A stretch of DNA of 64,000 bases from a virus, in the IMG/VR virus record IMGVR_UViG_3300037484_000374, positions 106,952 to 170,951 of that record. One strand, given 5' to 3'. The notes below the pieces were generated by a model, which was not told where the DNA came from, searched no databases, and saw only the letters and a list, made by a program, of their open reading frames with translations. A program made the translations under genes and the position numbers. Positions 5,665 through 58,496 of this stretch are shown piece by piece. Position 1 is the stretch's first letter. Every line of letters begins with the position of its first letter.

Positions 5665-5754
5665 GGAGAGTGCAAATAAGGCTGGATTGGTCTGGCGGTT
5701 GGCTGTAAACCAACCCCTGATAGACATGGGGTTCGAATCCTTCACTCCCCACCA
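5665..5754 (+). tRNA. tRNA-Tyr(GTA)
   Basis: GTTGG-CT GTA AA-CCAAC; long variable region; TTCGAAT; ACCA. Confidence 0.82.
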
Positions 5755-6673: not shown

Positions 6674-6753
6674 GCGGGTATGATAAGCCAAGGGCATTGG
6701 TAAACTGGACACCAGCCAGTAAATAAGGGGTTCGACTCCCCCTTCCCGCTCCA
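6674..6753 (+). tRNA. tRNA-Gly-like with ACC anticodon and non-canonical loop
   Basis: GCGGG/CCCGC-TCCA Gly-type acceptor; ACTGG-AC ACC AG-CCAGT. Confidence 0.65.
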
Positions 6754-7500: not shown

Positions 7501-7573
7501 CGCAAAGTAGACCGGTGTCTGGTGAAGTCTCATAAGCTCTCACGCTGGGGTTCAATTCCCCACTTTGCATCCA
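7501..7573 (+). tRNA. tRNA-Met(CAT), initiator-like (C1:A72 mismatch)
   Basis: CGCAAAG/CTTTGCA; CT CAT AA loop; GGTTCAATTCC; TCCA. Confidence 0.75.
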
Positions 7574-8839: not shown

Positions 8840-8953
8840 AAATAAGAACACTTTGAAAACCCCTCTTTTTCTTTGATATCAAGGAATTGGGGTTTTTCTT
8901 TTTTGTCGTTATTTTAAATTTTTTATATAAATACTATTAAGGGAGTAACGAAA

Positions 8954-9235
8954 ATGGAGATTTATGAAAAATATCTTCTTGAAACCTTACCGGATGGCTG
9001 GACAAAAGACAGCGTTCAAAAGTTTGCCAAGACGATAGCGGCAAGCACTGACAAGGAAGGTTTCTTCAAGAAGTGAGTGGAGAGAATGTCACAGCATTTG
9101 GATGATGCTGAAATGGTTAACGGTCTTTGTGCCAGTATGCTTGATAAAGCTAAAGGCAGTACATATTGGAGAGGTTCACATAAGACAGCGGCGCAGGCAA
9201 AGAAGGATGTAGCGGCACACCAAAATGTAAAATGA
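8954..9235 (+). CDS. 93-aa protein with in-frame TGA at codon 41 (candidate selenoprotein or nonsense pseudogene)
   Basis: Late promoter at 8926; GGGAG RBS; GFFKK*VERM...GLCASMLD...YWRG; hairpin at 9092-9110. Confidence 0.6.
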
Positions 9236-30533: not shown

Positions 30534-31553
30534 ATGCGTCTATTAATTACAGGTGGTACGGGTTATATAGGGTCACATACATGTGTTGTGTTGATGCAAG
30601 CTGGTCACGAAGTGGTGATCTTAGACAACCTTTGCAACAGTCGGCGCGATGTGGTTAATCGTATTGGCCGGATTGTCGGTTGGGAGCCTGCGTTCGTTGA
30701 GGGTGACGTGCGTGATCGCTCTTTGGTTCGCCGATTGCTTAATGACGAAGGTATTGATGGTGTGATGCACTTCGCTGGCTTGAAGGCGGTGGGAGAGTCG
30801 GTGGCCCAACCTCTTGCCTATTACGATTGCAATGTTTGCAGCACCATTGCATTGTTCGAGTCAATGGTGGAGGCGGGGGTGAAGGTACTGGTTTTCAGCT
30901 CGTCCGCAACAGTTTACGGATATCCAAAGACAGTGCCAATTAGTGAGGATTTTCCATGTTCAGCAACTAATCCTTACGGACGTAGTAAACTTATAATTGA
31001 GGATATCTTATCCGACCTTCTCAGGGCAGACCCGGCATGGTGTATTGCATGTTTGCGCTATTTCAACCCAGTTGGGGCGCATGAGAGTGGTATGATAGGC
31101 GAGGCGCCACTTGGTGTACCTAATAACCTCGTGCCTTATATAACTGACGTGGCGGCAGGGCGGCGGGAACGGCTCGAGGTTTTCGGTGACGATTATTCTA
31201 CCCGGGATGGTACAGGAGTGCGTGATTACATTCATGTTATGGATATGGCCGAAGGACACGTAGCCGCACTTAACGCGCTTGTAGCCAAAAGCGGAATGTT
31301 TACTGTCAACCTAGGTACAGGGTGCGGCTACACAGTGTTGGAAATGGTTCGTGCGTTTGCTGCTGCGAGTGGGAAAGAAGTTCCCTATGTTTTATCCCCT
31401 CGTCGTCCTGGTGATGTGGCTGAGTGTTATGCAGATGCGACACTCGCATCGACATTGTTGAATTGGCAGGCAAAGCGGGATATCCATGCCATGTGCCGTG
31501 ACACTTGGAGATGGGAACAATGGCGTTTACATTCCATTAAAAATATGTTATAA
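30534..31553 (+). CDS. galE: UDP-glucose 4-epimerase
   Basis: GGTGYIGSH, HFAGLKAVGES, FSSSATVYG, YGRSK, LRYFNP.GAH and RDYIHV motifs; GC higher than the flanks. Confidence 0.95.
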   Translation: MRLLITGGTGYIGSHTCVVLMQAGHEVVILDNLCNSRRDVVNRIGRIVGWEPAFVEGDVRDRSLVRRLLNDEGIDGVMHFAGLKAVGESVAQPLAYYDCNVCSTIALFESMVEAGVKVLVFSSSATVYGYPKTVPISEDFPCSATNPYGRSKLIIEDILSDLLRADPAWCIACLRYFNPVGAHESGMIGEAPLGVPNNLVPYITDVAAGRRERLEVFGDDYSTRDGTGVRDYIHVMDMAEGHVAALNALVAKSGMFTVNLGTGCGYTVLEMVRAFAAASGKEVPYVLSPRRPGDVAECYADATLASTLLNWQAKRDIHAMCRDTWRWEQWRLHSIKNML

Positions 31554-32345
31554 TATATTATAAGATAAATTAAAAGGAGTAATTATAAATTTCAAAGATG
31601 ATCTTCATGATCTAAAGAAACTGTTTAAAAATAAAGGGGAAGAAATGGCGCACGAGATGGGAGTCGAAGAATTTTTTCGGGGGGTAAAAGACCTCCGAGA
31701 AATGAGAAAAAACGACCCGGAAGGCTATCAAAAGTGGTGTAACGACAGGGGACTGACAGAAGATTCAGAGCCATTGGTGTTTACTGCGGACCCGGATGAA
31801 TAGCGGTTTGGTGTTATGGAACCATAATTTATATCAAGTGGTGATCAAGTAGCAATAATTGACTATAATATAAGTTATACTTACCTGAGAGCAAAGAGCA
31901 TTTAGTATAATAATAACAGTTATATACAAAAATGTGTTAATTTGTAAAAAAGTAGTCTAAAATTGTCCATATAATGTAATAATCTGTTAAAAATTGAATA
32001 GGAATATAATATGAAGATAGGTGATAAGGGTTGTTGGTCTCTGGAACACAAACTATTGAGGTGCAGCGATGACGAGTAATTCAGGAGATTATGGATATGA
32101 ATCAAGATGAAGCGGATATGAATCAAGATGAAATTGAAAGACAAGCAGATGAATTTTTTGCAACAAAGCTAATGAAAACTGTTAAGGTTAGCAATAATGA
32201 TTGTTTCGGTTGCCGGGCGAAACGTAAAAAACGTAAAAAACGTGGATTGCCTTGTTAAGGTTAGAAGTAAGCGGCAGGCCACAGGGCGACCACTTATTAA
32301 TTTTTTTTGCCGGATGCGTTATCCCATGCGGTTGAGGAATTGGTT

Positions 32346-32564
32346 ATGTCGATAAAAGTAAATAAAATTCGTGTAGTTATATATCCCGCCGACTTTCCGA
32401 AAAATATAAAAATGACCCCTGAAAATTGGAGCGACTGGCTAACCGGCAAGTTGGTTGACCACGGGATACCAGCAGATACCCCACAAACTGTTAATAGTGG
32501 GGTTATAAGTCGATTTGATGACCCCGGAAATGAGGGGCAGATTATTTACGAGTGGAAAGCATAA
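32346..32564 (+). CDS. cassette gene, hypothetical
   Basis: ATG within GTTATGT; TAA within GCATAAC. Confidence 0.65.
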   Translation: MSIKVNKIRVVIYPADFPKNIKMTPENWSDWLTGKLVDHGIPADTPQTVNSGVISRFDDPGNEGQIIYEWKA

Positions 32565-32652
32565 CGCTTCGGTTAACCAGTGGCGAGCCACCGAAGCAAT
32601 TTATTAAACTCAACAGCAGACCCCGCCATCTGCGTTGAACCGATTGTTATAT
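32559..32652 (+). repeat. attC-like site 1
   Basis: GCATAAC..TCGGTTAAC...GTTGAACCGATT-GTTATAT. Confidence 0.75.
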
Positions 32653-32667
32653 TTCAGGAGGCGCAGG

Positions 32668-32883
32668 ATGGAAAAGATAGTTGGTGATTGGCATATTGAA
32701 GTAACGATGTCAGCGGATGAAGCAAAAGAGGTCTGCAAGATGGGTAGTGGTGCTGGCGGTTTTGAGTGCATCAGGATGTCATACCCAGCGAACGGGAGCA
32801 TTTTCTCTCGTTTGAAGGACGGGACTATGAAGGCAAAGGGCGAAGGTGGATGGGCCGGTTGTGCTTGGCACGGGGAAATATAA
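32668..32883 (+). CDS. cassette gene, hypothetical
   Basis: AGGAGG RBS right after attC1; TAA within ATATAAC. Confidence 0.65.
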   Translation: MEKIVGDWHIEVTMSADEAKEVCKMGSGAGGFECIRMSYPANGSIFSRLKDGTMKAKGEGGWAGCAWHGEI

Positions 32884-32994
32884 CGACAAGTTGAGACGCG
32901 TCACGCGGAACTTAGCAAAGATAAATTAAACAATGGAGGACAATCCGCCAAGAAAGTGCCAGTGTGGGCGTCGGGCTTGAGCGGATTGTTATGC
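32878..32994 (+). repeat. attC-like site 2
   Basis: ATATAAC...GCTTGAGCGGATT-GTTATGC. Confidence 0.7.
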
Positions 32995-33003
32995 GAGGTT
33001 TTT

Positions 33004-33273
33004 ATGATTGATTTTAAAAAAGTAAAACCACCTAGCCTACTTGATATGTTCGGTAAATCTGTTGATGAATGGACGGTTAATGAAAAGCTACATATTGCGA
33101 CAGAGTATAAAAAACTGCAATGCAACAATATAGAGTGCCACTGTGGAAGAGATGTGCTGAAAAGCATTTGGGAAGCAATACACCAGACTCCAGCATGTGG
33201 ATTAAATGCGATACTTTGTGCGGCAGCGCAAGAAATTGACGCTTTGCGAAACATGGTTAATGCCGACACATAA
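33004..33273 (+). CDS. cassette gene, hypothetical
   Basis: GAGG RBS after attC2; TAA within ACATAAC. Confidence 0.65.
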   Translation: MIDFKKVKPPSLLDMFGKSVDEWTVNEKLHIATEYKKLQCNNIECHCGRDVLKSIWEAIHQTPACGLNAILCAAAQEIDALRNMVNADT

Positions 33274-33404
33274 CGCTCCGGCTACAAAACCAGGGCAACA
33301 AAAAATAATTAATATCATTTTTTCTATTGACTCTCTCTGATATTATGGTATTATTAAATCAAAGGGAAGGCAATAAAGCACTCTCGCAAAACAGGGAGCA
33401 AGAC

Positions 33405-33596
33405 ATGAAAACTTACAAAGAAATGTACGAAGAAGCCGCTGCTAAAACAAACGGAGAATACAAGGGGTATACAAAAGGCAACGCCCTTTCTCTGTACGTT
33501 GACGAAAAATACGGGGTGAATGCGGCGGCGAACAATGCCGCTCATGACGCTCTTTGTGAAGTTGCATCAACAATGAGTTTGGACGATGAAGAGTAA
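33405..33596 (+). CDS. hypothetical protein with its own promoter
   Basis: TTGACT..TATTAT promoter; GGGAG RBS. Confidence 0.65.
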   Translation: MKTYKEMYEEAAAKTNGEYKGYTKGNALSLYVDEKYGVNAAANNAAHDALCEVASTMSLDDEE

Positions 33597-33853
33597 AAAG
33601 GCGGCAATAGACCGGCCCTTGCACCTGAAGAAAAGCCGGTTGATATCTCCCTGCGCCCCCGCGCGATCTGGTTGAGAAACTGGACGCTATGGAAGGCAGT
33701 CGGGCGAAACTGATAATTGCAGCCTGTCCGGCCTCGATAATAAAAAATAAATAAAATAGAAATAAATTGCGATTATCGCTTGACGCAATAGAAATATAAT
33801 GCTATACTGTATTTAACAAAGGGCGATAAAGCCAAAGTTAAAAGGAGATAGCA

Positions 33854-34108
33854 ATGAAACTTAAATCAGACGACAAAAAAACTAATCAGTACCTTTTTCA
33901 TTCCGAAGAGATTTCCGTTGTTGAGTCTACCGACGCTTACAAACTGGTGGAATTTAAACGCGGCTTGGATTTCGGGCTTGCTCTTGTAATTGACGGAAAA
34001 GTAAAAGAGCTTCAGTGTCGTGGCAGATACGAATGGGACAAGATGAAAAAAGCAAACCCGGACACTTGGATTTCTGATATGAAAGAATATTTCATCTTCT
34101 TCATGTAA
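33854..34108 (+). CDS. hypothetical protein with its own promoter
   Basis: TTGACG..TATACT promoter; AGGAG RBS. Confidence 0.7.
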   Translation: MKLKSDDKKTNQYLFHSEEISVVESTDAYKLVEFKRGLDFGLALVIDGKVKELQCRGRYEWDKMKKANPDTWISDMKEYFIFFM

Positions 34109-34124
34109 TCAAAGGAGGCACAAA

Positions 34125-34367
34125 ATGAAATTTGAAAAATATGTTTTCGGGACGATGTTAAACGGATGGAGTATCACAAAATACACGGACGGCGAAATGA
34201 TTCGGATTGTTGCAGAACATTCCGAGCACGACGATGCCGGTGAAAGGAATTTTGAAAGCGAAAATGATTATGAAATATGGATTGACAGCATAGTTGATGA
34301 TGAGACAGCGATCTATAGCCCGGCCGAAGCGGTTAACCGTGTGTTGAAGGCACTAAGAAATGACTGA
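34125..34367 (+). CDS. hypothetical protein
   Basis: AGGAGG RBS. Confidence 0.7.
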   Translation: MKFEKYVFGTMLNGWSITKYTDGEMIRIVAEHSEHDDAGERNFESENDYEIWIDSIVDDETAIYSPAEAVNRVLKALRND

Positions 34368-34528
34368 TTACGTCAAACAACTTCGAGAAAAAGGCTGGAC
34401 GGCTCAAGAACTGGCGAAGCGGTGGGGGGGTTACTCCCCGCCGCATTTCGCAAATCGGCAATGGCCCGAGTCAAAAAGATTGGGACGCTTTGGCCGGGCT
34501 GCCGCCCAAAGTTGCCCCGGCAGACTAA
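34360..34528 (+). pseudogene. small HTH protein frameshifted in a G7 tract
   Basis: With G6 it reads ELAKRWGVTPRRISQI...PAD* and ends in the R'' box GACTAAC. Confidence 0.7.
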
Positions 34529-34588
34529 CGACCAGCATAAGCGGTTGCCGGGCAGTTTCGGCAATCCGACTTAATGCGCTGGTTATGC
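34523..34588 (+). repeat. attC-like site 3
   Basis: GACTAAC-GACCAGCATAAGCGG-TTGCCG..CGGCAA-TCCGACTTAATGCGCTG-GTTATGC. Confidence 0.85.
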
Positions 34589-34756
34589 GATTTTAAATTT
34601 ATGGGGGTGGCGGTACCTAATCTTGGTTGCTCTTGATTACTGCGAAAAGACGCAGGCCCCCCCGCCTTTTTACATTATGGCCGAAAGCATATGAGAACAC
34701 ATCCGCCGTGGACCGGGGCCATGTGTGAGTAGGCCATTTGGGGAAGAGGAGAGAAA

Positions 34757-34948
34757 ATGAAATTAAGGCTATCAAAAGAAAAAGACATGATGTGCGGGTG
34801 GTGTTTTGAACCGGATGATGTCCTGGCGATCCGCGACGAATATGAGAAGAGAAACGGAAACGAGGTTGCCAGCGATCTTGAATTTATGGATGATATTTTG
34901 GCAATCCTCTGGGAACACAAACTATTGAGGTGCAGCGATGACGAGTAA
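34757..34948 (+). CDS. cassette gene, hypothetical
   Basis: GAGGAG RBS. Confidence 0.6.
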   Translation: MKLRLSKEKDMMCGWCFEPDDVLAIRDEYEKRNGNEVASDLEFMDDILAILWEHKLLRCSDDE

Positions 34949-35132
34949 AGAAATGATGCAGACAAAGCTAAAAAAAGGGGGAATTTTTGAAAACCAGAGC
35001 AAGCTTGGCAGTAAGCCAAACTGGAAGATCATTCCTGCGAATATCGACAAGTATCCGTCTTTTGCTGCTTTCTGCGATGAATGTGGCTGCCCGTTCCATG
35101 ACGGAAAACCGGGATGCTATTGTTCAGCATAA
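34938..35132 (+). CDS. cassette gene, Cys-rich hypothetical
   Basis: TAA within GCATAAC. Confidence 0.55.
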   Translation: MTSKEMMQTKLKKGGIFENQSKLGSKPNWKIIPANIDKYPSFAAFCDECGCPFHDGKPGCYCSA

Positions 35133-35219
35133 CGCCCCGCATAACCAGCGTGGCCTAAAGGTTAATTCCCGATAGGGCCGCAGGCGTTTACCACGTCTGC
35201 GTTTATGCGATTGTTGGGC
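35127..35219 (+). repeat. attC-like site 4
   Basis: GCATAAC..CGCATAAC..GTTTATGCGATT-GTTGGGC. Confidence 0.8.
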
Positions 35220-35233
35220 CGCTCTTGACCTTA

Positions 35234-35494
35234 TTATTTTTTAAAATCAATTGGTAAATAAATGGTGAATCCATGAGAAACACGTTTATTGGAATATTTA
35301 TATTCACAGTAACCCCTTGGCTTTCTTTCTCCTCTACATGACTGTTCATTTTCTATCATGTGTTCAGAGCATAAAAAGCCACACGTTTCGTCTTGTTCTA
35401 CAAATATTTCTTTAATGTCTTGATAACAGTCATAAAGATAAACTTTATAATCAGCGCTATTGGTACAATTTTTTACACAACATTTTTGTTTCAT
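35234..35494 (-). CDS. Cys-rich hypothetical protein (antisense within its cassette)
   Basis: MKQKCCVKNC...CGFLCSEH. Confidence 0.55.
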   Translation of the reverse strand: MKQKCCVKNCTNSADYKVYLYDCYQDIKEIFVEQDETCGFLCSEHMIENEQSCRGERKPRGYCEYKYSNKRVSHGFTIYLPIDFKK

Positions 35495-35522
35495 GTTTAA
35501 CCTCAAATTTATGGTGAATAAA

Positions 35523-35792
35523 ATGAAAGAAATTGAAATTAAAATTACAGGCGAAAACAAGACTGGTAAAAGTAAAATTGCATGTTTGATAAGTAATGTC
35601 TTAAAAAATAGTGGAGCAACAATAACTTGTGAAGATGATTTCTTTAATTATGTAGGTAAAAACATTAATTTAGAAGAATGTAATATTGTTGTTAAAGTTC
35701 AATCTGTTAAATATCGGGCTCCCAACGGTATGACTATAATGTATGGCGATCCAAAAGAAGGCAAAAGTTGTCATGAGAACCATGTTTTATAA
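35523..35792 (+). CDS. hypothetical protein with P-loop-like G..KTGKS
   Basis: ITGENKTGKS. Confidence 0.5.
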   Translation: MKEIEIKITGENKTGKSKIACLISNVLKNSGATITCEDDFFNYVGKNINLEECNIVVKVQSVKYRAPNGMTIMYGDPKEGKSCHENHVL

Positions 35793-35832
35793 AACCTTTT
35801 GTTTATAACCTGGGCGGAAGTCGCAAGCCTCC

Positions 35833-35922
35833 GCCCAACGACCAAGGTAACGCGACCGGGCCACGATGCCTGGTTGCGAAGCCGCCGACGTTACCCCGGT
35901 CGCGTTGACCGTTTTGTTAAGT
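35833..35922 (+). repeat. attC-like site 5
   Basis: GCCCAAC..GGTAACGCGACCGGG...CCCGGTCGCGTTGACC..GTTAAGT. Confidence 0.85.
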
Positions 35923-36039
35923 TTTGAGCCACCGAAATTATTTTAAAAAACTTTGTTTTAGGTGTTGACTTATACACGCAATGCGTATATATTAAGACCA
36001 AGAGTTAAGCATAACTAACCAAAACAAAGGAGACAAACC

Positions 36040-36303
36040 ATGAGAAACTTAATCACGAGAGAAGAAGCTGTAAAAATGGTAGGCGAAGAACTGGTAAACA
36101 CCGCAGAGCAGACAAATTGTGATAACGCCTGTTTTGTTACCGATGGGACTGCATGGGCCGGGTACGACGCATACACCGCAACGGCTGATAATGACGACTA
36201 TCGGGTAACTGTTTATTATTTGCAGGATGCGGAAGAAACAAAAGATATCCCCCTTGACGATATGTCGTGGGAGATCGAAGGCTACGAGGTTGAGGAAGTT
36301 TAA
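36040..36303 (+). CDS. acidic hypothetical protein with its own promoter
   Basis: TTGACT..TATATT promoter; AGGAGA RBS. Confidence 0.7.
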   Translation: MRNLITREEAVKMVGEELVNTAEQTNCDNACFVTDGTAWAGYDAYTATADNDDYRVTVYYLQDAEETKDIPLDDMSWEIEGYEVEEV

Positions 36304-36506
36304 TGACAGGCCAAGAACTTAGAGAGGCCCGGCTTCGGCTGGGCCTCAACATGCGCCAAATGGCGGAAGCACTCGAAACACCATACCGGACATACCAGGA
36401 TTGGGAACTCGGAAACCGGCGCATTCTCGGCGTGTGCAATGTGGTTGTTTTTTTGCTGTTGAAATACAAGGGCGCAGTTAACGCATTACTGGCTCGAGAA
36501 ACTTAA
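36303..36506 (+). CDS. XRE-family HTH regulator
   Basis: LREARLRLGLNMRQMAEALETPYRTYQDWELG; TAA within ACTTAAC. Confidence 0.85.
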   Translation: MTGQELREARLRLGLNMRQMAEALETPYRTYQDWELGNRRILGVCNVVVFLLLKYKGAVNALLARET

Positions 36507-36557
36507 CCAATGATTGGCAGGCATTTTTGCCCCGCTATTTAATATTATAGGGGTATT

Positions 36558-36743
36558 ATGATTAATGTAAAAGAATATGATCAGGTTGAGATATGGGATG
36601 ATTTTGGTGGTGCGGACACGATTGCCGCATGCTACCTTGAAAACTCTTTGAACCAAGGGAAAACTGTTTCAATCCCAAGTTTGGGGATCACCATAAAAGA
36701 ACCTAGCGGAAACGCAATTACATGTAAAAACACCAGAAAATAA
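36558..36743 (+). CDS. hypothetical protein followed by a truncated attC left half
   Basis: GCCCAACCAGGCGCTGCAC at 36748. Confidence 0.5.
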   Translation: MINVKEYDQVEIWDDFGGADTIAACYLENSLNQGKTVSIPSLGITIKEPSGNAITCKNTRK

Positions 36744-37016
36744 TGCAGCCCAACCAGGCGCTGCACATTGGAGGTAAAAATATGGTTAAGATCACAGTAA
36801 AGTGCGTGGAATGGGGGTCAATATGCGAGACTGGCACCCAGCACTTTTGCCCCACTAAATAATTATTTTAGCGGTGCCAGATAAACCAACATCCAAATCA
36901 TTACTGGACATAGCAGATATTGCGTCGTGGTGGATTTGATCATACCATTTTTCACAATCTTTATGGTCTTCTTTAAGACTTGCTTTACCCTGCCTCTACT
37001 TGTTTACTTCCCTGTG

Positions 37017-37086
37017 AAAATCTTGTCATTACATCTCCTATTATATTTACTATCATTATACCACAATACTTGTTGTGTGTAAACTT
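37017..37086 (-). repeat. 70-bp exact inverted copy of 952-1021 (promoter + RBS + start codons)
   Basis: Direct comparison by eye. Confidence 0.9.
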
Positions 37087-38208
37087 ACAAGGAATATTAT
37101 TTCAGGAAAAGTATTGATATCCCTGAAAAATCATATAATAGAACTGAAAAAAAAGTGTATAGTTTTATGTTCCAATTGTCATAGAAAACTACATATTGGT
37201 TTGATTCATCTATAGAAATGTTGAAATTCCTTATTAATTTATCTTATAATTTATACTACAATGTGGTATATTTCTGCTATTTAATCATTTCATTAGATTG
37301 TTGTTAAATGGGGGTAAAATGAGGTTTCACTCTCGGTCAGAGACTAGACACAATCAAAACCAAGAACAAATGAATATCCTTGGTTTTGATTGTTGTTATT
37401 TCTTCTTCAATTCACTGTAATTATATGATACACGCTCTTTATCCTTAAACTCAACAGCGTAATCACCCTTTGTCTAACCCTTACCTACTGTAACCAATAC
37501 CCTCACCCACTAAATACTTGTCTTCTATATTCAATTCTCCTTATATTAATTGTCTCTTTACTATTTATACAGGAAATATTGTAATTTGTAAAGAATTTTA
37601 TTATTTTATTTAAAAAATACCCATTTTTATAAGTTACTAATGTTGTGATACAAAATGCCATTTACTCTCAGGGTTTCATAACATTTTTATTTCCCTTTCT
37701 CCCATGAAAAATTATTTAAAATATTTTTATCGGGTATATGGGTGTATAAAATGTGGTAATCGGGGGTAGAATTACAAAAAGTCCAGCGAGTAACGGATTA
37801 ATATTATACTAATGGAAGATTACAAAGATGCACAGGGTATGGGATACAGAGAGATGGTGGTTGAGGAAGGAATATATATACCCACCGAGATGATGGCGGG
37901 TTGATTTAAGTCCGTGGCTCGGTAAAGTATTTTCTCCATTATTTTTAATGTATTTTATATACTTTATTAAAATATTCTCTTAATTTACCCTCTCTTAACT
38001 ATATAATATCATTACCATAATAATCTGTTCAATTATACCTGAAATCATAGCAATGTAAACCCCTTCCCAGCCCATGTCTTAGAGCCTCTATTTTAATTCC
38101 ATTATTTTTTTTTCATTTTAGAAAACGTATCGTTTTCTACCACACACCCACACACACCCACACACACCCACCTCATACCCACCTCATACCCTCAGATATA
38201 TCAGATAG

Positions 38209-39121
38209 TTATCTCACACAACCGATACAAAAGATCACCCTGACTTCAACCCTATGTTTCAAAATCCCTACCCCCCCCTTGTGGATAGGGATTGTAGCTG
38301 AAAACTTCTCGCTACTATTGGCTTCTTGAAATAGCCTGTTCCTCTTAGAGAGGACATAGTTATAACGGATGTTCTTGGCGGCATTTAAGTCGATGTGATC
38401 GATATGACCGCAAGAAGAACAAATGTAGTTGCTTTTCTTACGGCTGTTCTTCTCAGTAACTCCACACACATTACACTTTTGACTCGTGTATCCGGGGTCA
38501 ACATAGACAACTTCAATACCGTTAAATTCACATTTATATTCAAGAAATGATTGAAATTGAAAATAAGACCAGTTAGAAAGCCAAGAATTTAGTTTATGAT
38601 CTTTTCTCTGGTTTCTGAGTCCTTTCAAATTTTCGAGAACATAAGTGCTAACATCGTGACTTGATAGCTGCTTTGTAACAACATGATTGAAATCTCGCAT
38701 GAACCGCATTTCTCGACCAGACAGCTTCTTTAGTTTCCGTTTCGCTGATCGAGTGCCTTTTTGCTGTAATTTCTTTCTATTATACTGGTACTTTCTTTTA
38801 ACAGCTACCGTTTTTTTAGATGATATGATTTTACCATCCGATAATGCACAGAGATTATACAAACCTCTATCAATTCCTATTATTTTCAGTTTTTACTTTT
38901 TCTTTGACTTTATAAACAAGGCATAACCAAAATTGACCGTTTTTGAATGTTAATTGCCCTGCCTGAACATCGTTTGTATTTACACTGTACTTTGTTACAA
39001 ACCATTCAGGAATATCATGGAGGGCTCGTACTCTTTTATTATTACTGCTTATAGTGGTAAGTTGCCCTCTACGGGACAGAGATAGTTTATTCAAGTGGAG
39101 TGTAACCGAGAGGGACAGCAT
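38209..39121 (-). pseudogene. tnpB: IS200/IS605-family TnpB, split and 5'-truncated
   Basis: VLENL, W.Y.Q....LEYK, V.P.YTSQ.C..CG, C..CG...D.NAAKNI; the GID motif sits at the frameshift. Confidence 0.85.
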
Positions 39122-40676
39122 AAAATTGTATAAAATTGTATAAAATTGTATAAAGATTAATTATATTACACATTGACACTCCCCTTATATCTTGGTATAA
39201 TATAATAATAGTTTAATATAAGGAGAATTGTATGAACACATTAGAAAGTTTATTGAGAATGACTGTGAAGGGGGAAAACGGGGTGCTTAAAGAGCAAGGC
39301 TTGTCTTGTGAAGTTGATGTGACCCCAGAATTTAGAGTGGCAGTACAAAGCATTACCGAGGATGGGGTGCATATTATAATCCATGCCAATGGCCATAATA
39401 GCGACACATTAGACTTTATTGTAAGTGGAGATGAATTACAGCTCTTGAACACTTAAAGATTAGAGGAGATTATGGATGACAATACTTATATGTGAGAATG
39501 GAAGACCGGGATGTGAGGGATGTGAGCATTGTGAACCACACACTAAAGAAGATTTACTGTGCTGTGATGATTGCAGGTTGGATGGTGAGTGTGTTTTTTG
39601 GGGTATACAAGTTAGGTGCATAGAGGTTGAAGAATGAGTGTTATATAATACTTGACATCCTATCTCAGTGTGGTATAATGGAGTATAAGACAAAGAAAAA
39701 ATATGGGGGCAAGAAATGAATGCAATCGAAGAGTTCTATGTAAAAAAAGCAAAAATGACAGAAGAAGAAATACAGAAAATGTATGACGATCTTGGAGATG
39801 ACGACAGCATCATGGTTGTGGTGCCGAACGGTGAAGAAGATGATTAAACAGCAAGAGACTTCATTGTTTGATTATATCGATGTCACCCCCATCAGAGACA
39901 GTAGCCACCTTTCCAGTAATAACTTGGAGTTCTCGTGATTATATTGAGAGTGTACTGAACATTGACAAGGAGTAATTGATTATGATATTCTATGGGTACA
40001 ATTATATGAAGAGTGAATGGATCAAGATAACTTTCTTTCATATGTTATGGTTGATGTTTATTGGTTGAACTCTTGTAAGGATTGAGGTAGAGCGATGATG
40101 GTAATAGAATTTATGGATGGTCATATTCATATTGATCTCAAAGACTTTCCAAAAGTTATAGAGAGATGTCTTTCATGTATCTTATCATGGGTCATCTATA
40201 TATGAAACATGTCCAACCTGTAAAGGTGATAAGGAAAAGGTATTCTAGCGGTCAATGAATAGTGAAGAAAGGTTCAGATATTTATTAACATTAATATCAA
40301 ATGAGGATGGAGATTGAAATGGTAATATATTGTGCAGGGTGCCGTATTAAGGTGGCCGTGATGGTGAAGGGTAGTTCAATCAAGACCGGTGCTGTTATGT
40401 TATGTGCCGCATGTGAGACAAAAAGAATGGCGGGGGATATGGCTAAGAAGATGTTTGAGAAAGCACCCATGTATGATGATAATTGGTTTAGTGATATATT
40501 CAAAGGAAATAAGATAAAGAAAAGGGGAGCAAAATGAAAACAATCAAAACATATTTTAAAAAGATGGTGGATGATCCAAGTGAGTTTCAGGCATGGGTTA
40601 TATTGTTATTCTTAATTAGTTGTTGGATGACAACAGCTATCTGTATAATTGGATGGTTCGCAAATAGGTAAGGAAA

Positions 40677-40940
40677 ATGAAATACAAGAAGTTGGTAAGA
40701 CAGGCAAGTGAAGTTCAGAAAGATGATGGTATTCAGGCATATATTTGTTATAGTGGTGCTGTACAGGAAAAACTACGCAATAAGCTAGGATTATCACAAG
40801 AGGATTTTGCTCAAAAATCTGGTGTGAAATATACAACGCTGACAAAAATTGAAAGCAGTGTAATAAAAAAACCGTCTGTTATGGTTATGGATCAAATTGC
40901 CAAAGCTCTTGGTGTTTCCATTGAGGATTTAATAAAATAG
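40677..40940 (+). CDS. XRE HTH controller (C) protein of an RM system, probably with a chimeric N-terminus
   Basis: KLRNKLGLSQEDFA...YTTLTKIES...IAKALGVSIEDL; directly upstream of the MTase. Confidence 0.75.
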   Translation: MKYKKLVRQASEVQKDDGIQAYICYSGAVQEKLRNKLGLSQEDFAQKSGVKYTTLTKIESSVIKKPSVMVMDQIAKALGVSIEDLIK

Positions 40941-40944
40941 TATT

Positions 40945-41988
40945 ATGGCAAAAACTAAAAACGACAATTTAAAGTTTATTGATTTATTTGCTGGAATTGG
41001 TGGCTTCCATTTAGCTTTGCATGATTTAGGTGCTAAATGTGTTTTTGCTTCAGAGTGGGATGACTTAGCCAGACAAACATACGAAAAAAATTTTCAAAAA
41101 ATTCAACCCTCTCTTTTTGAAAAGGGATTATTTGCAAAAGAAGGACAAGAATTATTTGCAGGTGATATTACAAAGGTTAATCCTAAAAAGATTCCAGATT
41201 TTGATATTTTATGTGGAGGGTTTCCTTGCCAGCCATTTAGTATATCGGGAAAACAGAAAGGTTTTCAGGATACACGAGGAACATTATTTTTTAATGTTTT
41301 AGAAATTATAAAAGCAAAAAAACCAAAAGTTGTTTTTTTGGAAAATGTTAAGAATTTGAAATATCACGATAATAAAAAGACTTTATCTGTCATAATAGAG
41401 AATTTGGAAAATATAGGATATAAAACAGAGTGGAAAATCTTGAATGCTAAAGACTTTGGGCTAGCTCAAAACAGAGAAAGAATAATCATCATCGGACACA
41501 AAGATAAAAGGTTTGATTTTGGCAAAATCAAAAAAGATAATTCAAAAACAATTAAAGATATCATGGAGAAAGATGTTGAGTTTGAATATTTAAAAAAAGA
41601 AGAATACACAATTTTGCCAAAAGATAAATGGAAAAAACAAGATTCAGGTTTAATTTTTTGTGGATACAGAAATAAGTCAATTAGAACAAACGGCACAAGA
41701 CCAAATACCGAACACCTTTCGCGTGTTCACAAGCAGCCAAATAGGATATATTTTATTGGGGGTACTCATCCTACGATACCATCACAAGAATCATCTGGAC
41801 GATTTTGGATATATGACGGGAAAAAAGTCCGAAAATTAACCATTAATGAATGTTTTCGATTACAAGGGTTTCCTGATAACTTTAAAAAAATCAGTACGAA
41901 TGGAGCTTTGTATAATCAAATTGGCAATGCAGTTGCTGTACCAATGATAAAAGAAGTAACTAAGGAAATAATAAATCAATTACTATGA
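40945..41988 (+). CDS. C5-cytosine DNA methyltransferase
   Basis: FAGIGG, GFPCQPFS, ENV, QNRER, RLQGFP and QIGNAV motifs. Confidence 0.95.
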   Translation: MAKTKNDNLKFIDLFAGIGGFHLALHDLGAKCVFASEWDDLARQTYEKNFQKIQPSLFEKGLFAKEGQELFAGDITKVNPKKIPDFDILCGGFPCQPFSISGKQKGFQDTRGTLFFNVLEIIKAKKPKVVFLENVKNLKYHDNKKTLSVIIENLENIGYKTEWKILNAKDFGLAQNRERIIIIGHKDKRFDFGKIKKDNSKTIKDIMEKDVEFEYLKKEEYTILPKDKWKKQDSGLIFCGYRNKSIRTNGTRPNTEHLSRVHKQPNRIYFIGGTHPTIPSQESSGRFWIYDGKKVRKLTINECFRLQGFPDNFKKISTNGALYNQIGNAVAVPMIKEVTKEIINQLL

Positions 41989-54931: not shown

Positions 54932-56614
54932 TTAAATGTTCTTTAGAAGTTTCTTAATGAGTTCCATTTGGTGTTTTGCAAATATTTCCTGTGCTTCTTC
55001 AACAGACAACTCAGGCTGTGCTACAATAGAGTCCCATTCCTTACCCTCATAAATACCCCTCACCCAGCTTGGTGAATTTGAAGGCTCGGTTACTAAGTCC
55101 CATGTCAGCAAATTGAAATCATCATTAACACGACCATCACTTCCAACTGTTCCGAGGCCACGACTACTGATACCAATACCACCCTCTTTTACGAGAGTCT
55201 TGGCGATGTTTCCCATTGGTGTGTCAAGTACCTTGGCTTTACCTATGATGTCGTTACCCTTCCAATCAAGTGATTCAACCCTGATAGCGATCTTATCAGG
55301 GTTGATTTCAGGACAATTACCTGTCCAGAACGAAACACTATCTTTATTTCTAACATAGAAATTTTGATTTTTTACCCTAACGCAATAAACATTACCATTG
55401 TAAGATTCTTTACTAACATTGGTATGATCATCAAACATCCATATACCTTTTGAAGTATATAACTTTAGAAAATATAGAGGTTGTTTATTACACGCTTTGA
55501 TAACTCTACCTCCAAAAACATAATCGGTATCACATATTTCCACTGTCTTCATTGCAGAAATATCACACTTCAATGCAATTTCATGAAAATCATCAATCAT
55601 TCTTTTAGATGTTGAAAATATGCCCCTTCTTTCGTATCCATTATCATCAACACTATGCCTATCATCACCGACACCAAACCAATAAAGTAACTGTTCTAAG
55701 TATTGAGGTGATAACTGTTTGAATTCATCTGGTATATATTTACTATAACAATTACCCAATCCCTCAAGAAATTTTGATAATCTTCTATCCGTCAATATAA
55801 ATTCTCTATCTTTTCTTCCCCATTTCATACCCTCAGGGAACATATCTAATAATTTTTCAATCATTAAAGAACTTTCTTCCTTAATATGAGAAATATGAAC
55901 ACATGTATATGTACCATCCCCACCTTTTGATAAATTACCTTTTGCAAGATAGATACCGAGAAATGATATAAATACATTCATATCTATTTCAACATTTTCA
56001 GTATAGTCTTTTTTAAATTTTCTATTTTTACATTCGTCAACTGAAAATCCTTTCAAGGTAAAGACATCTATATCATTACCTATCCATGTGCCTGTCTTGG
56101 GGATATAACATTTTTTAAATCTTCTTGTAGTTGATTGATCAACCTCTTCTGAGGTCGCAAACAAATGTTTGTTATATCTATCTATCAGAAAATGTCTATG
56201 GGTGGGTGTGAAAGACATATCAACTTGTCTATTTTTATATCTAAACATATCACCTACAAAAGGTGCTTCTATACGTTCGTCTATTTGATGATATTCAATT
56301 TCTCTGGAGTCTGGATTAAGTGTTGCAACAACCTCATCATTTGCGATATTCTGAATCTCTTTCCATCCATCTTTTGTTAATATTTCATTATCACCAAAAA
56401 TACAAGGTGGATGGCCTAACTCACCCCACAGGCTTCTATCAATCTTTTCATTTATTTTCTTGATTTCTCTTTCAAGTAAATTACGACCATAAACTCTACC
56501 ATTGCCGTTCTTGAGTTCTGCTGATGAGAAAACACCATAGATGTAAAGGTCTTGACCTTTCTCTTCTACAAGAATATCAGCGAACATTTCTTCTGTTATT
56601 AGTTTTCTACCCAT
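54932..56614 (-). CDS. prohead protease (gp21-like) with intein
   Basis: NGRVY, GELGHP, GKAKVLDTPMG, GISSRGLG and D.V..PS motifs. Confidence 0.93.
   Translation of the reverse strand: MGRKLITEEMFADILVEEKGQDLYIYGVFSSAELKNGNGRVYGRNLLEREIKKINEKIDRSLWGELGHPPCIFGDNEILTKDGWKEIQNIANDEVVATLNPDSREIEYHQIDERIEAPFVGDMFRYKNRQVDMSFTPTHRHFLIDRYNKHLFATSEEVDQSTTRRFKKCYIPKTGTWIGNDIDVFTLKGFSVDECKNRKFKKDYTENVEIDMNVFISFLGIYLAKGNLSKGGDGTYTCVHISHIKEESSLMIEKLLDMFPEGMKWGRKDREFILTDRRLSKFLEGLGNCYSKYIPDEFKQLSPQYLEQLLYWFGVGDDRHSVDDNGYERRGIFSTSKRMIDDFHEIALKCDISAMKTVEICDTDYVFGGRVIKACNKQPLYFLKLYTSKGIWMFDDHTNVSKESYNGNVYCVRVKNQNFYVRNKDSVSFWTGNCPEINPDKIAIRVESLDWKGNDIIGKAKVLDTPMGNIAKTLVKEGGIGISSRGLGTVGSDGRVNDDFNLLTWDLVTEPSNSPSWVRGIYEGKEWDSIVAQPELSVEEAQEIFAKHQMELIKKLLKNI
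55316..56404 (-). mobile_element. intein with LAGLIDADG-like domain in the prohead protease (363 aa)
   Basis: P/CIFGDNEILT...FTPTHR...VYCVRV...FWTGN/C. Confidence 0.9.
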
Positions 56615-56936: not shown

Positions 56937-58496
56937 TTAAAATCCACCATCTTCTTCATCAAAACCCAATTCCTTGTCCTTTTTAAACCCATCTGAATTA
57001 GCTTTGATCATAGCATCATCCCAATGAAGGTACTCTTTCATGAGGAAATACTTTGAGAATTCAGCGTTATTGGACAGTGTTGAGTAATTACTGGTCTGTG
57101 TTTCCAGTAATTGCTGTTGCATCTGTTGCTTGTATTGGTTAGGTGGAGTCATCTTGATACGTATTTTACTTCTATCAATACCATACTCTTTCTTCAAACC
57201 AGTGAAGTTCAGATGAATCAAGAACAATTCCATGAAAACATTAGTAAATTTACCTTGTTGTCTTTCTAGGAACTTGGCCCATTTAATCTCATCTCTTGTT
57301 ATCTCACCAGTGCTTGTTCCACCAAATACGTTATCACTCTCACGCTTTTCTTGCTGTGCTGTGACTCTTGACATGGGGTATTTCATTGCTCTGTAAAGTT
57401 TACGAGCGAAATAGTAAATATCGTCCAACTCTGCGAACCCTGATGGGTTTCCGCCGATTGATGTAATATCAGAACCATGACCATCAGATGACTGAGGAAG
57501 GAAGAAATTTTCAAGCATGGAGAATATTTCAGGGCTGTTGGTTAACTGTCCTGTCTGTCCATCATAACCAATTTTCTTCGTGAATTTATTTTTAATCTTC
57601 TCTACAAAGGCCATTGACTTATCTTTAGGCATAGAACCTGTGTCGATCTTGAAAACAAGTCTTTCCGGTGCTCTAACTATACGATAAATTATTACTGATG
57701 TTTCCAGTAGCTTCAACGAGTTAAATGGTTGTTTTGTTTTTTCTAAGTAACCTAAAACTTCTGATTTTGTCTTACCATAAATACCATAATCAAGGTATCC
57801 GATCTGATTTGGATCAAATACAATAATCTTTGTGTCTTGTCGGGCCTCTTCGATAGTGGCTGGGCGTTTTGGATTTTGGGTAAGGTATTGATAATATGCT
57901 AACGTTTTACCGGTCTTCGGGTCATATAACCTGTCCATCGTTTCGGTGGGTAATTTCTTTATGGAAACAACACCGTTTCCCGCTCTACCTTCGTGAATTA
58001 TCTGCTCAAAGAAAACTTTTCCATCGATAAAAAATGTTCTCATCAAATCCCATATAATATCATTGATATTCAGGTTTCTGAAAAACAGGTCATTGAAAGC
58101 ATCTGTAATATTCATGACAATGTTTTCGTTCTTTTCCATTTCAGGGTCAGTAATTTCAAGAGAGAGGACGTTACCTTTCTCATCGCTCTGGGTTGATTCT
58201 ATAATGGCATCTTCAACAACGTCAGCAATTTCAGGCATCTCTGACATGCTTCTATAATACAACACGCGCTGAACTTCGCTTTCAAATGAGATATTGATCG
58301 AGTTCTTGTAGAATGTGTTGAAAGATGATATGGACTCCCTGCCATAACCAGTTATAACACTGATATCATCAACACCTTCACCTGCTCTTTTATCAAGGGC
58401 TTTATCAGTAAAACTGTTATCACCCTTGTTACGGAAAGCTTTAATCTCTTCCGTTATTGATTTTGTACCCCATATATCTGGATTCCACCATTTCAT
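56937..58496 (-). CDS. portal protein (T4 gp20-like)
   Basis: IYRIVRAPER.VF.IDTG.MP, YF..KLY.A...P.SR and ITRDE.K motifs. Confidence 0.95.
   Translation of the reverse strand: MKWWNPDIWGTKSITEEIKAFRNKGDNSFTDKALDKRAGEGVDDISVITGYGRESISSFNTFYKNSINISFESEVQRVLYYRSMSEMPEIADVVEDAIIESTQSDEKGNVLSLEITDPEMEKNENIVMNITDAFNDLFFRNLNINDIIWDLMRTFFIDGKVFFEQIIHEGRAGNGVVSIKKLPTETMDRLYDPKTGKTLAYYQYLTQNPKRPATIEEARQDTKIIVFDPNQIGYLDYGIYGKTKSEVLGYLEKTKQPFNSLKLLETSVIIYRIVRAPERLVFKIDTGSMPKDKSMAFVEKIKNKFTKKIGYDGQTGQLTNSPEIFSMLENFFLPQSSDGHGSDITSIGGNPSGFAELDDIYYFARKLYRAMKYPMSRVTAQQEKRESDNVFGGTSTGEITRDEIKWAKFLERQQGKFTNVFMELFLIHLNFTGLKKEYGIDRSKIRIKMTPPNQYKQQMQQQLLETQTSNYSTLSNNAEFSKYFLMKEYLHWDDAMIKANSDGFKKDKELGFDEEDGGF

Follow-up and report, generated by a model that had tools for sequence, protein, structure and literature searches.

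The gene at positions 8954-9235 of the window (the whole 64,000-nucleotide stretch of phage DNA analysed here, spanning bases 106952-170951 of an IMG/VR virus record of 170,951 bp whose completeness is put at 71%) is interrupted by an in-frame TGA, and the question that it raises is whether this codon ends translation or is decoded as selenocysteine (Sec). The initial annotation of this DNA had described a late promoter, a ribosome binding site and an ORF with one in-frame TGA at 9074-9076, and their coordinates were borne out in the sequence; the frame does stay open for 52 further codons past this TGA. The elements of the gene, together with the capsid genes of the same genome that bear on its function, are listed in Table 1.

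Table 1 Features of the interrupted two-Cys gene and related capsid genes of the window. The Shine-Dalgarno sequence was identified by direct inspection of the DNA.
Feature	Position	Strand	Description
Candidate gene ORF	8954-9235	+	ATG at 8954, 40 codons, TGA, 52 open codons, stop
T4-type late-promoter box TATAAATA	8926-8933	+	20 nt 5' of the start codon
Shine-Dalgarno sequence GGGAG	8941-8945	+	8 nt ahead of the ATG
Putative capsid-targeting-like leader MEIYEKYLLE	8954-8983	+	ends in L-x-E
Coding part 1, 40 codons	8954-9073	+	leader and first helices of the two-Cys domain (GWTKDSVQKF ... GFFKK)
In-frame UGA, proposed Sec codon	9074-9076	+	first Cys column of the domain; context GFFKK*VERM
Coding part 2, 52 codons	9077-9232	+	second invariant Cys (TGT 9128-9130), D, W-R-G
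SECIS-like hairpin	9092-9110	+	7-bp stem CAGCAUU/GAUGCUG, apical loop UGGAU
True stop codon	9233-9235	+	also TGA
gp21-type prohead protease gene (Peptidase_S77)	54932-56614	-	PF03420 at 53.2 and 27.9 bits, one open frame
gp20-type portal gene	56937-58496	-	about 30% identical to portals of cultured T4-like phages

The genome to which the window belongs is that of a distant T4-like phage, which also encodes NrdD, a PRPP synthetase and many tRNA genes. The late-promoter box TATAAATA is present in 24 copies in the window compared to 9.8 expected (24 copies were reached in 0 of 100 shuffles), and several of these copies lie just 5' of ORF starts. One region of the window (31553-40945) has a raised G+C content (0.42) and almost no ORF longer than 100 aa. 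The phage is not confined to one record: a 16-kb IMG/VR record with another sample number (IMGVR_UViG_3300037483_000227) encodes a portal 100% identical to that of the window, indicating that the window phage recurs.

The product obtained by reading through the TGA belongs to a large unannotated phage family, characterised by a helical two-Cys domain of about 63 residues. Twenty-two close homologues were reached via one IMG/VR relative (L004), and a profile made from them retrieved 487 cluster representatives at E <= 0.001 among 1.84 billion. The motifs of the domain are (P)KGW(T)xxS(V)xKF, GFFxxC(V)xKM, (G/A)FCA(S)xKD and TxWRGK. Of the 174 domain copies drawn from representatives at no more than 50% identity, 172 have the first Cys and 173 the second. 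The window ORF matches the family profile with E = 1e-27 and, tested at the invariant positions (W, S, C, C, D, W-R), reads as a member of the family. Its genome contains a single copy of the domain. The family has no name in Pfam, PHROG or ESM-Atlas. An AlphaFold model (pLDDT 80.7) predicts five helices, of which two successive ones carry one Cys each; no solved structure with a matching fold was found (Foldseek against the PDB, E >= 2.5; VIA-align wide, best Z 3.4), and the fold search against BFVD gave weak matches only, to capsid morphogenesis and maturation proteins.

The domain is found in several architectures: it stands alone after a short leader, or is fused to Peptidase_S77 prohead proteases (P0080, P0082, P0137). 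Further fusions are to cupin/DUF5661 modules. In one short member the domain is joined to the N-terminal (rubredoxin-like) domain of Desulfoferrodoxin, an arrangement which hints at redox or metal chemistry and at anaerobic hosts (the members fused to cupin, DUF5661 and Desulfoferrodoxin N-terminal domains are in alignment A3, and include P0075 and P0052). A single member (P0151, on a 3.3-kb JGI contig) has neither Cys, with Ile and Thr in their places; this joint loss suggests that the two Cys residues act as a pair. Among 29 related records collected on the basis of the portal, the domain is absent from 25, one of them 98% complete, and is present in the other 4, all of them with Cys. Megablast and tblastn searches of cultured phages gave no match to the gene or to its neighbours, IMG/VR queried with the 369-aa and PDDEXK neighbour genes gave none, and neither did a peptide-pattern search of metagenome contigs.

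The in-frame TGA aligns to the first Cys of this domain (GFFKK*VERM, compared to GFFDACVxKM in relatives). The initial annotation had held that Trp or another residue at this column in homologues would speak against Sec; the column is occupied by Cys in 22 of the 22 close homologues, as it is in nearly all of the diverse copies, and the downstream Cys that it had proposed as a partner is the near-invariant second Cys of the family. The closest full-length relative (L011, on a 244-kb contig) reads GFFKKCVKKM, with TGC as its Cys codon. Seven contigs (JGI, Logan and ENA) encode the exact 40-aa product ending at the UGA, and the downstream 49-aa ORF occurs as two haplotypes (3 contigs, and 4 contigs with a D-to-N variant); consequently, the UGA is not an assembly error. 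A full-length Cys or Trp allele was absent from the sequence collection on exact look-up, and no near-identical full-length protein was found in a word-based search.

The same codon is interrupted in a second phage. Metagenome contigs were scanned for the pattern W-T ... G-F-F-x-x-TGA ... C-A-x-x-x-D, and among 85 matching stretches there was one true family member (L211, Ga0114925_10005388; profile E = 3.6e-28), in which the TGA stands at the same column as in the window gene (KKGFFNK*MEKIKGHLDDPEAFCASLKD). L211 is a fragment of a T4-like phage carrying a gp32 gene, and shares its gene order with the window: the two-Cys gene, a PDDEXK_15 endonuclease gene, the MSK..DEF gene and the FYQNM gene. 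The three neighbour genes are 40.5%, 30.3% and 51.0% identical between the two phages, and the two-Cys gene itself is 54% identical before the TGA and 49% after it. The initial annotation had considered that the TGA might be private to this genome; its presence on several contigs in two haplotypes, and at the same column of this syntenic orthologue, indicates otherwise. Past the TGA, 52 codons are open in the window gene and 48 in L211, and every family-invariant residue is kept in both; this part has stayed open and conserved across such divergence, as an untranslated region would not, and so has remained under protein-level selection. Halves of the L211 type are found on at least 5 contigs, in several haplotypes, the N-halves ending in GFFNK and the C-halves beginning right past the stop.

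Two more members end or differ at this position. A third member, again divergent, is P0182 (43 aa, on a 22.9-kb ENA contig), which ends at GFFDL, exactly before the Cys column. P0073 (Logan, 1.9-kb contig) has Trp at the first Cys column (GFFDAWVSKM), and this Trp may be a TGA translated under table 4. The pattern GFFDA-TGA had one match in IMG/VR (L005), which proved to be a chance match; the wider TGA pattern that had led to L211 gave no true member in IMG/VR, and 0 true members among 59 stretches in GTDB genomes. A tree of 37 family members was too poorly resolved to count origins (one as opposed to several).

The hairpin noticed at the outset downstream of the TGA is real. Its arms (9092-9098 and 9104-9110) enclose a loop that begins 22 nt past the UGA, and the stem-loop has a folding energy of -8.4 kcal/mol. 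Its geometry was judged by limits that are reportedly those of the bSECISearch model, a loop of 3-14 nt that starts 16-37 nt after the UGA and has a G in its first two positions; the window stem-loop, with its small G-containing apical loop, falls within them. A contiguous stem-loop of the same geometry at <= -7.3 kcal/mol is found at 1.2% of random positions, and after 0.9% of the 7429 UGA trinucleotides of the phage genome; if bulges are allowed, the frequency of a chance hairpin is 3.4% in the window genome and 4.3% in the L211 contig. The 60-nt fold after the UGA is overall not unusual (z = -0.9).

Conservation of this hairpin in homologues, which the initial annotation had named as support for Sec, is seen in L211, where the top-ranking hairpin of this geometry lies at the same position, with the same loop (UGGAU, 22 nt past the UGA) and a different stem (GGG(C)AUC/GAUCCC, -6.5 kcal/mol). 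RNAalifold, run on the two DNA sequences (window and L211), keeps 5 pairs, including one that changes from A-U to G-C on both sides and one that changes from U·G to C-G via a synonymous Leu change. Two more of the four covariation events were deduced from protein variants, each by its only single-base path, instead of being seen in DNA: the D-to-N variant of the window type (G9104 to A) would make the closing U·G pair U-A, and an H-to-D variant of the L211 type (CAU to GAU) would put a G-C pair in place of the C·C mismatch and so complete a perfect 6-bp stem (-10.5 kcal/mol). In a set of 35 distinct Cys forms, such a hairpin at <= -6.5 kcal/mol is present in 4, in none of them at the same position. 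The hairpin evidence alone is modest (p about 0.03-0.04 per phage with bulges allowed), and the conservation of the loop follows partly from the conserved Leu-Asp-Asp codons.

Elsewhere in both phages TGA serves as a normal stop codon, closing 32 of the 160 long ORFs (20%) in the window genome and 3 of 12 in L211. A global reassignment of TGA or TAG was considered and rejected: the ORF sets were no better under table 4 or with TAG read as Q, and TGA is a common stop. Neither a suppressor tRNA nor a UCA anticodon was detected in the phage record by ARAGORN (default and 85% thresholds), and searches for tRNA-Sec, SelA and SelB (ARAGORN, the Rfam tRNA-Sec model, SelA/SelB profiles) gave no result in this 71%-complete record. 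The phage does encode a tRNA-Trp(CCA).

Several tRNA or tRNA-like genes are missed by ARAGORN at its default settings. Two identical 76-nt tRNA-like elements (6674-6749 in the window, and G000:C1:81266-81341 outside it) have acceptor- and T-arm-like ends and score 18 bits on the tRNA-Sec model. More such genes are located at 51-121, 133-218, 5666-5749 and 7502-7568; they comprise Phe (GAA) by Rfam, Ser (TGA) and Met (CAT) with the ARAGORN threshold at 85%, and an 84-nt Tyr-like tRNA whose anticodon (GUA) was read by eye. UCA is the anticodon of none of these four.

These observations can be set against the criteria by which selenoproteins are recognised in metagenomes: TGA/Cys pairs with at least two homologues and with more than half of them, a conserved frame past the TGA and, close behind it, a stem-loop whose small apical loop contains G (PMC1088965). 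In the window gene, TGA/Cys pairs are formed with more than half of the homologues; the frame past the TGA is conserved and the stem-loop is present, and to these is added conservation across divergent orthologues. The UGA lies at an invariant Cys, and a distant phage has the same UGA and the same hairpin, so the codon most likely encodes Sec. From the sequence comparisons, we estimate a probability of roughly 0.75 that the UGA at 9074-9076 is decoded as selenocysteine by the SelB/SECIS-dependent machinery of the host; the proposal of Sec at a Cys position thus gains support from the Cys column, from the L211 orthologue and from the conserved hairpin.

The main competitor of the Sec reading, which we consider unlikely, is that the gene is split: the UGA would be a true stop, and the downstream part would be translated separately by termination-reinitiation, from GTG 9077 or ATG 9086 in the window and from the ATG directly past the TGA in L211. 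The two products, between them lacking the first Cys, may associate. This would account for the conserved downstream frame without Sec. A start codon adjoins the UGA in both phages (GTG in the window, ATG in L211), which leaves room for reinitiation and counts against Sec, as does the C-x17-C spacing of the domain, unlike the classical redox motif CxxC/UxxC; in addition, GGAG is found 3 nt before ATG 9086, and gene callers list the two halves as separate ORFs. However, the GTG and the ATG encode the commonest family residues at that column, Val (114/174) and Met (24/174), the C-terminal piece would be devoid of a leader, and splitting leaves unexplained both a break that falls exactly at a Cys invariant in 172/174 copies, in two or three lineages, and a hairpin of SECIS geometry kept by compensatory changes. 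The Cys pair suggested by P0151, in which a first column that is neither Cys nor Trp goes with the loss of both Cys, also argues against two halves working without the first Cys.

Read-through without selenium, programmed or leaky, would put a near-cognate tRNA at the UGA (Trp, possibly the tRNA-Trp(CCA) of the phage, or Cys), perhaps stimulated by the hairpin. UGA is the leakiest stop codon, and the A1 protein of Q-beta is made by Trp read-through; the phage has its own tRNA-Trp(CCA), and P0073 has a W at the Cys column. This W may nevertheless be a TGA translated under table 4, Trp is unlikely to be tolerated at a column that is Cys in 172/174 copies, Cys insertion by near-cognate decoding is rare, and leakiness does not lead one to expect the site to coincide with an invariant Cys; we regard this explanation as very unlikely. 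Least probable, and by our estimate highly unlikely, is a pseudogene: a nonsense change from TGY to TGA would have inactivated the gene, and the frame past it would be open as a relic. The step from TGC, the codon of the closest full-length relative, to TGA is a single transversion, and the domain is dispensable, as is seen from its absence in most of the related records, including the 98%-complete one. The initial annotation had cautioned that the genome has many pseudogenes, a caveat that did not hold: a search of the genome for further coding genes interrupted by TGA gave none that was convincing. Decay also fails to explain the same stop at the same codon of a syntenic orthologue whose neighbours are only 30-51% identical, or the 50-52 downstream codons that are open in both phages, 49% identical and with the family-invariant residues kept. 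Stop-creating single-base changes number 44 in the window gene and 50 in L211, in each case with 1 at the UGA codon, and two independent nonsense changes would hit this codon by chance with a probability of about 1/2200, before the chance that both genes are pseudogenes is counted; moreover, the allele is fixed on all the sampled contigs of both lineages and the hairpin is conserved.

The other end of the protein bears on where the selenoprotein would act. In T4, the capsid targeting sequence MKTYQEFIAE is carried by the internal proteins IPI, IPII and IPIII and by Alt, and the gp21 protease cuts after (L/I)-x-E. The leader of the window gene fits, in the T4 register, M-x-x-aromatic-x-x-aromatic-aliphatic-x-E, and the motif M-x-(x)-[FLY]-x-x-[YF]-[LIM]-x-E opens no fewer than 11 further ORFs of the genome (compared to about 0.5 expected, a rough estimate), the one-residue-shorter form included (MKFGKYLLEE, MSRLHNYMTE, MRLLNYISES). 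In other phages, many family members begin with M(K/R)Fxx(Y)(I/L)xE, which leads straight into the domain. The resemblance to a capsid targeting leader, which had been pointed out from the N-terminus of this gene, is supported by this recurrence in the genome, by the same leader on the domain elsewhere and by the fusions to gp21-type proteases. The S77 fusions and the (L/I)-x-E rule of gp21 fit a protein that would be targeted to the prohead and trimmed there, and the gp21-type protease of the window is the probable enzyme cutting its (I/L)-x-E leaders.

Two further observations concern proteases and leaders of this kind. The protease ORF of the window encodes 560 aa and matches Peptidase_S77 twice, once at profile positions 30-98 and once at 44-190; the two matches are separated by about 1 kb, which suggests either an insertion or a duplicated, fused protease-scaffold gene. 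In a Cys-form family member on another IMG/VR record (IMGVR_UViG_3300000557_000063; L047:1457-1500), a well-positioned ribosome binding site and an ATG are followed by MTRFKE, a TGA, LMEKEKG and the rest of the domain; this TGA is on an aromatic position of the leader, and the other ORFs on the 3-kb piece are without an in-frame TGA. Either the leader is broken and translation restarts from the ATG that comes next, or this TGA is a further recoding site.

On the Sec reading, the expression of the gene can be pictured as follows. The mRNA would be made from the TATAAATA promoter in late infection, and the hairpin 15 nt past the UGA (9092-9110, loop UGGAU) would recruit the host SelB with Sec-tRNA(Sec), so that Sec would be inserted at the UGA (9074-9076) and translation would run on to the real stop at 9233. 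The product would be a late protein of about 93 residues, composed of the 10-residue capsid-targeting-like leader and the small helical two-Cys domain, with selenocysteine replacing the first Cys. The leader would probably take it into the prohead, where the gp21-type protease would remove the leader after L-L-E, and the Sec/Cys pair would probably form a redox couple, with a selenenylsulfide in place of a disulfide. That Sec is inserted, that this depends on the host, that the protein is packaged and cleaved, and that the pair has a redox role are all deduced from sequence features. At the level of the lineage, it is likely that in this uncultured T4-like clade a two-Cys cargo protein of the capsid interior became a selenoprotein, by a Cys-to-Sec change that occurred once or several times, and that its decoding hijacks the SelB and tRNA-Sec of the host by means of a SECIS hairpin carried by the phage.

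The candidate resembles the known bacterial genes that depend on SECIS and SelB (the families of the Sargasso Sea metagenome, PMC1088965, and fdhF of E. coli) in several respects: the UGA is on a conserved Cys, rare and scattered Sec forms are found among widespread Cys forms, UGA is an ordinary stop elsewhere in the genome, and a stem-loop with a small G-containing apical loop lies within the coding sequence directly downstream. Unlike these genes, it is carried by a virulent-type T4-like phage, and the Sec machinery would be borrowed from the host; it is also a small putative virion-cargo domain of non-enzymatic appearance with C-x17-C spacing, rather than a thiol oxidoreductase with UxxC. 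With IPI, IPII, IPIII and Alt of T4 it has in common the late promoter, a gp21-type protease in the genome and a leader common to many unrelated small genes, which in both cases is 10 residues long, begins with M, has aromatic residues at positions 4 and 7 and an aliphatic one at position 8, and closes with Glu. It differs from the T4 internal proteins in that its mature part has no sequence homology to any of them. We know of no T4 internal protein that contains Sec.

Selenoproteins have been described in eukaryotic viruses, namely the GPx homologues of molluscum contagiosum virus and fowlpox virus (PMC8310308, PMC6769590). These are likewise virus-encoded genes that rely on the Sec-insertion machinery of the host, but they are captured host genes with a SECIS in the 3'-UTR, whereas the candidate is a phage-specific domain with an in-frame hairpin of the bacterial type. 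Our literature search found no description of a phage selenoprotein gene. The nearest report concerns huge wastewater phages with predicted tRNA-Sec genes, for which phage-encoded selenoproteins were suggested (PMC10747093); as far as the consulted part of that report goes, these phages are predicted to have tRNA-Sec and no selenoprotein gene is reported, whereas the phage described here presents the reverse, in a 71%-complete record. Mechanistically this would be the established bacterial system; the novelty lies in a phage making use of it, in an unannotated family of putative capsid-cargo domains.

If the Sec reading is true, the gene would be, as far as our searches show, the first in a bacteriophage to encode a selenoprotein; it would also define a new selenoprotein family, and the virions would carry selenium. 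To gene callers, such a gene looks like two small ORFs, as was seen on every contig analysed here, and phage selenoproteins would therefore be missed systematically; the scan for TGA at conserved Cys columns is open to generalisation. Confirmation would mean that a lytic phage can use the low-capacity Sec pathway of its host in late gene expression, that phage genes can evolve and maintain SECIS elements of their own, and that the Cys pair of a widespread, unannotated capsid-cargo domain is redox-sensitive and matters enough to be upgraded to Sec.
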